This document shows positions 25,374 to 25,959 of a DNA stretch of 36,622 nucleotides, in pieces. Below the pieces are notes generated by a model, which had not been told where the DNA came from, searched no databases, and was given only the letters and a program-made list of their open reading frames with translations. The stretch is from a virus (taxonomy: Duplodnaviria; Heunggongvirae; Uroviricota; Caudoviricetes): the IMG/VR virus record IMGVR_UViG_2531839531_000013, positions 1 to 36,622 of that record, one strand, 5' to 3'. Each line of letters starts with the position of its first letter. The stretch's first letter is position 1. A program made the translations under genes and the position numbers.

Positions 25374-25607
25374 TTAATGCAGCCAGCTGTCGTCTTCCCA
25401 CACCTTCTGCATAATTTTCATCACTTGCTTCCTTTCTTCGTCCAGTTGCAGTCCGGTCAGTTCCACACCGTTAGAGCTACCTTTGCGGATGCGAATTACC
25501 GTTTTTGGATATAGGGGGCGCAGATTGCGGTAAAGCTCGGATTCAAGGGCGTCCAGGGTAGACTGGCTAATCTTCTGCTCTTTATCGATCATTATTTCAA
25601 TGCGCAT
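25374..25607 (-). CDS. DinI-like protein (Tum C-terminal-like)
   Basis: MRIEIMIDKEQKISQSTLDALESELYRNL...WEDDSWL resembles E. coli DinI as recalled; start taken at the internal Met after a GGTGA Shine-Dalgarno. Confidence 0.7.
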   Translation of the reverse strand: MRIEIMIDKEQKISQSTLDALESELYRNLRPLYPKTVIRIRKGSSNGVELTGLQLDEERKQVMKIMQKVWEDDSWLH

Positions 25608-25617
25608 AAAAGTCACC

Positions 25618-25806
25618 TCAGCTGATGACATCCATTGAGCGGTTGTATTCGTGGGTTCTGATTTTTGCCATGAGTTCATCTGTCAGTTCAGAAACCCACT
25701 GCAAAGCCAGCCCCTTCTCTTCATCACTACACTCACTAGCCGCTACAAGTTTAAGAAAAAAATCAATGCGCTGGAGCTTCAAAGACTCCAAAAAATAGTC
25801 CTGCAT
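25618..25806 (-). CDS. Small protein (62 aa) preceding the DinI-like gene; possible Tum N-terminal part
   Basis: AGGAGG Shine-Dalgarno 4 nt before the ATG; a LexA box lies just upstream. ORF track extends the start to 25908, which would place the LexA box inside the coding region. Confidence 0.5.
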   Translation of the reverse strand: MQDYFLESLKLQRIDFFLKLVAASECSDEEKGLALQWVSELTDELMAKIRTHEYNRSMDVIS

Positions 25807-25849
25807 CTTTCCTCCTATGACACCACAAGCAATACTGTATGTATAACCA

Positions 25850-25865
25850 CTGTTTATATTTACAG
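25850..25865 (-). promoter_or_regulatory. LexA (SOS) box overlapping the promoter of the tum-like operon
   Basis: Perfect CTGT-N8-ACAG (CTGTTTATATTTACAG) plus an adjacent half-site; TTTACA -35 and TATACT -10 candidates on the minus strand. Confidence 0.65.
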
Positions 25866-25959
25866 TATATAATAATCTTACTGATGTAAAACGTTTTTTT
25901 ACGTTCATCAGCCTGATATGCCTGGTATTATTAAGAGCACGAATTGTTAACCCGCGTAA

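Follow-up and report, generated by a model that had tools for sequence, protein, structure and literature searches.

The 36,622-nucleotide (nt) viral DNA analyzed here (IMG/VR record IMGVR_UViG_2531839531_000013, positions 1 to 36,622; the whole stretch is called the window) carries on its minus strand a short two-gene module. We read this module, with a probability of roughly 0.9, as the "split tum" SOS operon of a Fels-2-like P2-family prophage, in which the phage 186 paradigm is carried by two polypeptides. A first-pass annotation, made from the letters alone, had proposed a LexA-controlled tum-like module with a separate DinI-like open reading frame (ORF), and this proposal was borne out: all elements lie on the minus strand and are conserved in relatives. 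The module is a known, common, and experimentally characterized variant of the tum SOS operon, and the split is not new. The window itself is a Fels-2/RE2010-type P2-family (Peduoviridae) prophage. The 16.6 kb around the module show 92-97% identity to Salmonella phage RE2010, Klebsiella prophages, and others, and the module's 661 bases are 100% identical in several E. coli chromosomes. The two genes and their ribosome-binding sites are as follows.

25618-25806, minus strand: ORF1, the tumA-type gene, encoding a 62-amino-acid (aa) antirepressor candidate (phrog_698, E 3.6e-38; predicted two-helix hairpin).
25811-25816, minus strand: Shine-Dalgarno (SD) sequence AGGAGG of ORF1, 4 nt before its ATG.
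25374-25607, minus strand: ORF2, the tumB-type gene, encoding a 77-aa DinI-like protein (Pfam DinI PF06183, E 6.6e-23).
25614-25619, minus strand: SD sequence GAGGTG of ORF2, overlapping the ORF1 stop codon TGA (25618-25620) and 6 nt before the ORF2 ATG (25607).

The DinI-like character of the second ORF was confirmed. ORF2 scored 81.3 bits against PF06183 (cutoff, 24.2), covering profile positions 1-63 of 63, and aligned with residues 71-145 of 186 Tum at 41% identity (E 3e-24). It also matched the E. coli DinI structure 1GHH (E 2.7e-6) and was identical in 77/77 residues to Fels-2 STM2726.1. Its score against the host DinI equivalog model NF007893 of NCBIfam was 42.7 bits, below the cutoff of 111, and PADLOC returned no match for ORF2. 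By these profile scores, ORF2 is a phage DinI-like paralogue and not a host DinI orthologue.

The upstream gene was analyzed at the codon level using 30 ungapped homologues. The numbers of variable columns at the first, second, and third codon positions were 28, 17, and 56 of 62, and 538 synonymous codon differences were counted vs 274 nonsynonymous ones. This third-position bias and the synonymous excess show that ORF1 is a real gene under purifying selection. The first-pass annotation had favored a short start over an alternative ATG at 25908, and the comparison of relatives came down on the same side. A 96-aa ORF starting at 25908 exists mechanically and would span the promoter and the LexA box. 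Its start is not kept in relatives: in E. coli HS the ATG is replaced by ATA, the A-run immediately following it shows single-base indels among the window, HS, and Fels-2, and in many relatives the frame is closed by stops lying 3-19 codons before the short ATG. The sequence (T)AGGAGGGAA before the short ATG is kept in nearly all relatives, with the AGGAGG nearly invariant, and the Fels-2 and PGAP annotations both take the 62-codon gene.

Alignment of both ORFs to 186 Tum, which had been suggested as a check, succeeded directly for ORF2 and by profile methods only for ORF1. Residues 1-70 of 186 Tum matched phrog_698, the family of ORF1 (E 5.9e-6). ORF1 in turn matched phrog_1993, the family of PSP3 TumA (E 2.2e-3), and both phrog_8554 and phrog_1993 were matched by ORF1 as well as by 186 Tum. 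When 26 ORF1-type sequences were compared with 49 N-terminal halves of the 186 type using hhalign, residues 1-43 aligned with residues 1-43 without a gap (E 1.3e-4). ORF1 is approximately 21% identical to the N-terminal half of 186 Tum, and only Cys 26 and an Ala-Leu pair eight residues later are conserved throughout. Judged by these profile matches, ORF1 is a remote but detectable homologue of the N-terminal, non-DinI half of 186 Tum. A single-sequence AlphaFold2 model of ORF1 consists of two helices (residues 2-23 and 28-61; predicted local distance difference test score, 91.6) with the Cys residue in the turn. A Foldseek search of BFVD with this model gave nonspecific helical-hairpin matches only, all with E >0.1, and a PDB sequence search with ORF1 gave nothing at E up to 10.

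Genetic data are available for a nearly identical gene. ORF1 is 61/62 identical to Fels-2 STM2728 and also 61/62 identical to ECHS_RS04495 of E. coli HS, the 62-codon ORF upstream of the HS DinI-like gene. In the Phollow study (Nat Microbiol 2025, PMC12055606), ECHS_RS04495 was the gene deleted as tum in the HS prophage DuoHS. Either an in-frame Δtum mutation or a lexA(Ind-) background abolished mitomycin C-induced lysis and the formation of viral foci, and the SOS reporter response of the DuoHS Δtum strain was still normal (PMC12055606). Thus, the experiments that the first-pass annotation had proposed (mitomycin C, lexA(Ind-), gene deletion) are essentially published for this 61/62-identical gene. 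For Fels-2 and PSP3, Lemire et al. 2011 (PMC3121763) describe tum as split by a stop codon, with the PSP3 upstream gene being an antirepressor; the antirepressor activity is given there as a personal communication. According to Shearwin 1998, as cited in PMC3121763, binding of 186 Tum to CI, its cognate repressor, keeps CI off its operators. In addition, the summary of Bunny 2002 in PMC12626290 states that Fels-2 was lost in all surviving lexA-null Salmonella isolates.

We then compared the junction between the two genes across related loci. The distance from the ORF1 stop to the ORF2 ATG is 10 nt, not the 11 nt originally counted, and ORF2 lies, as noted at the outset, in a different frame (+1 relative to ORF1). 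In the window, two cistrons, each with its own start and SD, are thus present instead of one fused tum. The Fels-2-type sample comprised 33 Enterobacterales loci (L007-L039), one per species except for one species with two; the PSP3-type (L120-L199) and 186-type samples comprised 80 viral-contig loci each. The three types were composed as follows.

Fels-2 type, 33 loci: first ORF of approximately 62 codons, never fused; DinI intact in 17, damaged in 3, and absent in 13; LexA box at the equivalent position in 31/33.
PSP3 type, 80 loci: first ORF of approximately 60 codons; DinI in the same frame 3 nt away in 48 and absent in 30; LexA box at the equivalent position in 79/80.
186 type, 80 loci: fused 146-aa Tum in 80/80, with DinI inside the fusion; LexA box at the equivalent position in 79/80.

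The 17 intact DinI ORFs of the Fels-2 type follow the first ORF at gaps of 9, 10, 11, or 12 nt and in relative frames 0, 1, and 2. An SD is present before every DinI ATG at the junctions of the related loci, with a purine-rich GGGG or GAGG whatever the gap length. The DinI-like cistron is facultative, and the small upstream gene is the constant component. Because gap and frame vary freely, because the cistrons have their own SDs, and because DinI is frequently lost, both a sequencing frameshift and a conserved recoding signal are ruled out. The initial suggestion of "a different arrangement or a frameshift" is hence decided for its first half: the split is kept in every relative examined.

The frameshift half of that suggestion corresponds to a view in which the two ORFs are the remains of a broken (frameshifted or pseudogenized) 186-like fused tum, or the product of a sequencing error. 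Such a view could appeal to the fused 146-aa Tum of 186 and of 80/80 close relatives, and to the ORF2 frame, which extends without a stop for 24 codons before its ATG, into the end of ORF1 (a 101-aa ORF). It is opposed by the identical split in Fels-2 and E. coli HS and by the occurrence of the 661-base module in 1125/5426 complete E. coli genomes. Furthermore, in the 33 Fels-2-type loci the first ORF always stops at approximately 62 codons, and DinI, where it follows, starts 9-12 nt on, in any frame and with its own SD. Both ORFs are under purifying selection or intact, and deletion of the 62-aa gene alone renders the E. coli HS prophage noninducible. We regard a broken fusion as the least credible of the explanations considered, and on sequence comparison it is already refuted by conservation.

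A second explanation is programmed recoding, by which a +1 frameshift or stop-codon readthrough would sometimes yield a Tum-like ORF1-ORF2 fusion. This would mirror 186, where one reading frame gives nested products (full-length and short Tum). The PSP3 genes, which are in the same frame and only one stop and one codon apart, would also permit it, as would the ORF2 frame, which is open across the last 62 nt of ORF1. The free variation of gap length and frame in close relatives is incompatible with a conserved recoding signal, however, and every DinI ATG has an independent SD. Moreover, 13/33 Fels-2-type and 30/80 PSP3-type loci lack the DinI cistron, and a -1 shift at the A-run GCAAAAATC would be expected to enter the wrong frame. 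We consider recoding highly improbable and retain two separately translated cistrons as the preferred reading.

At the same junction, a weak 6-bp hairpin (GTCATC...GGTGAC; 25612-25629, minus strand) spans the ORF1 stop and the ORF2 SD and is followed by TTTTAT. It was the sole terminator-like call of a generic scan. This hairpin could be spurious, or could at most couple translation of ORF2 to termination of ORF1.

Upstream of ORF1, the following promoter and operator elements were assigned.

25848-25867, minus strand: candidate LexA (SOS) box TACTGTAAATATAAACAGTG, overlapping the -10; its CTGT-N8-ACAG core is perfect, and it matches the consensus TACTGTATATATATACAGTA at 17/20 positions.
25885-25890, minus strand: -35 hexamer TTTACA of the SOS promoter (equivalent of 186 p95), with a conserved A-tract before the hexamer.
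25864-25869, minus strand: -10, first option, TATACT, with a 15-nt spacer to the -35.
25862-25867, minus strand: -10, second option, TACTGT, with a 17-nt spacer, as annotated for 186 p95.
25833-25852, minus strand: possible second, degenerate LexA-like site CAGTGGTTATACATACAGTA, overlapping the first box by 5 nt.

The LexA box had been described as perfect, which is true of the core and not of the box as a whole. The CTGT-N8-ACAG core by itself is statistically unremarkable, since 0.40 occurrences are expected per window and it was present in 32/100 shuffles. A 20-mer with at most 3 mismatches to TACTGTATATATATACAGTA was found once in the window and in 0/100 shuffles. As for the two box-less Fels-2-type loci, one is truncated where its contig ends and the second is a pseudogene. 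The minus-strand sequence runs TTTACA, a 15-nt spacer, TATACTGTAAATATAAACAGTG, the leader, AGGAGG, aaag, and the ATG at 25806, so that the predicted LexA box overlaps the -10 of the ORF1 promoter. In an alignment of 32 related loci anchored on the box, TTTACA was kept in at least 80%, with constant spacing to the LexA box. The annotation of 186 p95 places a -35 hexamer TTCACA at the equivalent position and a -10 hexamer TACTGT that is the first hexamer of the LexA site. We assign the promoter on the basis of the conserved TTTACA-N15-TATACT / N17-TACTGT geometry and the positional match to the annotated 186 p95. Together with the box in 31/33 relatives, this geometry substantiates the claim that a LexA box overlaps the promoter.

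In the second LexA-like site, the right half, ATACAGTA, fits the consensus, and the left half has GTG, not CTG. The window has GTGG-N8-ACAG at this site, and some relatives have GTGT-N8-ACAG. Its motif gATATAtATACAGT follows the ACAG of the first box at a fixed 16-nt offset in most long-leader Fels-2-type loci; in the leader alignment, the second ACAGT motif was absent from short-leader Pantoea/Erwinia-type loci, 186, and PSP3. This conserved ATACAGT motif could be a degenerate tandem LexA site that gives tighter repression.

The presumed target of TumA is encoded in the same window.

31172-31804, plus strand: 186-type CI immunity repressor, presumed TumA target (30% identity to 186 CI over its full length, E 5e-34; matches to PHROG transcriptional repressors).

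ORF1 lies directly downstream of gene A in a genome that encodes this 186-type (non-autocleaving) CI, and the following mechanism is proposed. In the lysogen, host LexA would bind the box over the -10 and the transcription start and keep the operon off. Upon DNA damage, RecA would be activated, LexA would cleave itself, and the promoter would fire. The first cistron would deliver TumA, a predicted 62-residue helical hairpin, which would inactivate the 186-type CI encoded 5.4 kb away. Inactivation of CI would release the early lytic promoter, and the prophage would be induced. The second cistron, with its own ribosome-binding site overlapping the first stop, would deliver a DinI-like protein, an optional accessory whose probable role is to adjust RecA filament activity while induction proceeds. 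The short Tum products of 186 are annotated as "modulates SOS induction." The steps of LexA repression and cleavage are supported by the sequence and the DuoHS genetics. Neutralization of CI by TumA is suggested by the DuoHS genetics, the PSP3 report, and the 186 biochemistry. From these relatives, we infer both the binding of this TumA to this CI and the action of the DinI-like protein.

Several points weigh against this reading. The profile link between ORF1 and 186 Tum is modest, as the hhalign probability was only 54% and both alignments were shallow, and a direct BLASTP comparison of ORF1 with full-length 186 Tum yielded no alignment. The ORF1 protein is not covered by any family in Pfam, NCBIfam, or PADLOC. 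The SOS promoter was not called by a generic sigma-70 scan. The case for CI as the target of the Fels-2-type 62-aa protein is one of genetics and of analogy with 186, and the published experiments were made on relatives, not on the exact window sequence. Finally, a TumA at least 98% identical to ORF1 occurs beside CI proteins of very different sequence, whose identities to the window CI are listed here.

RE2010: 95%.
Fels-2: 60%.
Kp4865-2: 59%.
Kp4845-2: 53%.
Kp4860-7: 41%.
E. coli HS: 40% (HS locus L006, 4701-5270).

With the same TumA accompanying CI proteins that are only 40-60% identical to the window CI, a simple one-to-one fit of antirepressor and repressor needs qualification. These partner CI proteins are 64-71% identical in their N-terminal 75 residues and 27-53% identical in the remainder. 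This pattern hints that TumA may target the CI DNA-binding domain and may cross-act between immunity types.

The divergent partners also bear on the question of whether CI is the target at all. ORF1 might be needed for induction without being a CI-binding antirepressor, acting instead on LexA, RecA, lytic transcription, or another phage protein, or the DinI-like product might be the effector. Besides the company of divergent CI proteins, two observations leave space for this idea: CI binding is published only for 186 Tum, whose N-terminal half is approximately 21% identical to ORF1, and the helical-hairpin fold is generic, with uninformative structural neighbors. The DuoHS data (PMC12055606) speak against it. 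Since the Δtum strain showed a normal SOS response and no phage induction, the protein acts downstream of LexA and RecA; since the in-frame deletion leaves the DinI-like gene in place, DinI is not sufficient. DinI is also missing from many loci, PSP3 TumA is reported as an antirepressor (PMC3121763), and the CI partners of one TumA are still 64-71% identical in the N-domain, which would allow a shared binding surface. A target other than CI, or a DinI effector, thus appears very unlikely to us, and an antirepressor acting on CI remains the preferred reading.

The partner CI sequences led us to a further, tentative idea, which we think has a smaller chance of being right than of being wrong. 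TumA might be a broad-specificity antirepressor that acts via the CI N-domain, and the DinI-like cistron and a stem-loop at the 3' end of the operon (see below) might be optional or regulatory extras that adjust when induction occurs. If so, one SOS-induced Fels-2-type prophage could cross-induce coresident P2-family prophages of other immunity.

The split tum operon would explain how DNA damage can induce this prophage when it does not induce P2 itself, and it is relevant to predicting prophage induction by antibiotics such as fluoroquinolones. The arrangement is nothing new in kind: PSP3 carries it in its annotation, the literature discusses it for Fels-2 and PSP3, and functional tests exist for E. 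coli HS. It does reveal an annotation gap, as the 62-aa antirepressor lacks a Pfam or NCBIfam model although roughly one in five complete E. coli genomes carries it. Current labels for the protein are "hypothetical protein" in PGAP and a family of "unknown function" in PHROGs.

Downstream of ORF2, the following features were recorded.

25329-25371, minus strand: conserved stem-loop of 15-18 bp without a U-tract, directly after the ORF2 stop and followed by GGTTGAACAACGAG.
24532-25251, minus strand: cargo gene for a 239-aa protein with an N-terminal HNH motif (Pfam HNH, E 2.4e-5; phrog_6544).
23522-24220, minus strand: cargo gene for a 232-aa protein (phrog_1305, "DNA binding protein"; weak PADLOC match to PD-T7-4, E 1.2e-6).

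The stem-loop has a minimum free energy of -23.5 kcal/mol (z score, -1.9). In related loci that have DinI it comes after the DinI stop, and in those that lack DinI it comes after the TumA stop. It is carried by L007, L016, L022, L023, L026, L029, L033, and L039, and RNAalifold analysis of 8 copies gave 18 pairs, 4 of them with changes on both sides. An Rfam search of 25150-26000 returned only a chance microRNA match (E 0.56). Similarity to Fels-2 and HS stops just before the stem-loop. This element probably ends the SOS operon, either as its 3' end or as a partial terminator, and borders the variable cargo. Both cargo proteins are unrelated to 186 orf97 and to the Fels-2 and HS genes at the same position. 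The 239-aa HNH protein was considered as a homologue of 186 Orf97 or Fels-2 STM2726, which would have made it an extension of the operon, and was rejected because no similarity was found. The region looks like a variable defense/moron slot of P2-like phages. SOS-dependent read-through into the cargo genes is possible, given that they lie on the same strand with no canonical terminator between. In Escherichia phage 500465-1, a TIR-domain gene comes after the DinI-like gene.

The remaining neighbors of the module belong to replication and immunity.

25960-28374, minus strand: P2 gpA-type replication endonuclease gene (804-aa ORF; matching records are annotated "replication endonuclease"), adjoining the module upstream.
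30266-30775, minus strand: cII-like gene in the immunity region, approximately 5 kb from the module (PHROG search).
30808-31050, minus strand: cox/apl-like gene beside CI (PHROG search).
31807-32823, plus strand: integrase gene beside CI (PHROG search).

On the minus strand, the order is thus gpA-type replication endonuclease, tum module, and variable cargo, after which the plus-strand portal and terminase genes follow. Gene A precedes the tum-type genes in the window, 186, PSP3, Fels-2, and E. coli HS alike. In the record of Escherichia phage 500465-1 (961-2193), an IS21-family (IS100kyp-like) element interrupts the gpA gene that lies upstream of the tum module.

Among known systems, Fels-2 (STM2728/STM2726.1) and the E. 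coli HS prophage DuoHS (ECHS_RS04495/ECHS_RS04500) are the most similar. Both share with the window the order after gpA, the 10-nt gap, and an identical promoter and LexA box. They differ in the partner CI, which is 60% (Fels-2) or 40% (HS) identical to that of the window, and in the sequence right after the DinI stop, where divergence begins and unrelated cargo follows. PSP3 likewise has an upstream gene of approximately 60 aa, a 77-aa DinI-like gene with a closely similar product, and a LexA box over the -10. Its tumA is annotated as "similar to 5' end 186 tum; UV induction of prophage" and its tumB as "similar to dinI and 3' end of 186 tum." In contrast to the window, the PSP3 genes are in the same frame and 3 nt apart, no second ACAGT motif occurs in the shorter leader, and TumA belongs to phrog_1993 whereas ORF1 belongs to phrog_698, with a weak link at the profile level.

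Phage 186 shares the LexA-repressed promoter downstream of gene A, the CI type, and a Tum whose N-terminal part resembles ORF1 and whose DinI-like C-terminal part resembles ORF2. In addition, an internal GTG preceded by its own SD lets 186 produce the DinI-like part as a separate product. The differences are that 186 Tum is a single 146-aa polypeptide and that the canonical terminator t95a and orf97 lie downstream, whereas the window has the U-less stem-loop and unrelated cargo. The dinI-gfoA/gftA operons of the Salmonella prophages Gifsy-1/2/3 are also LexA controlled and combine a DinI homologue with a small antirepressor of a noncleavable repressor (PMC3121763). As described there, they are set apart by having dinI first and by antirepressors and repressors that come from unrelated families, in lambdoid phages.

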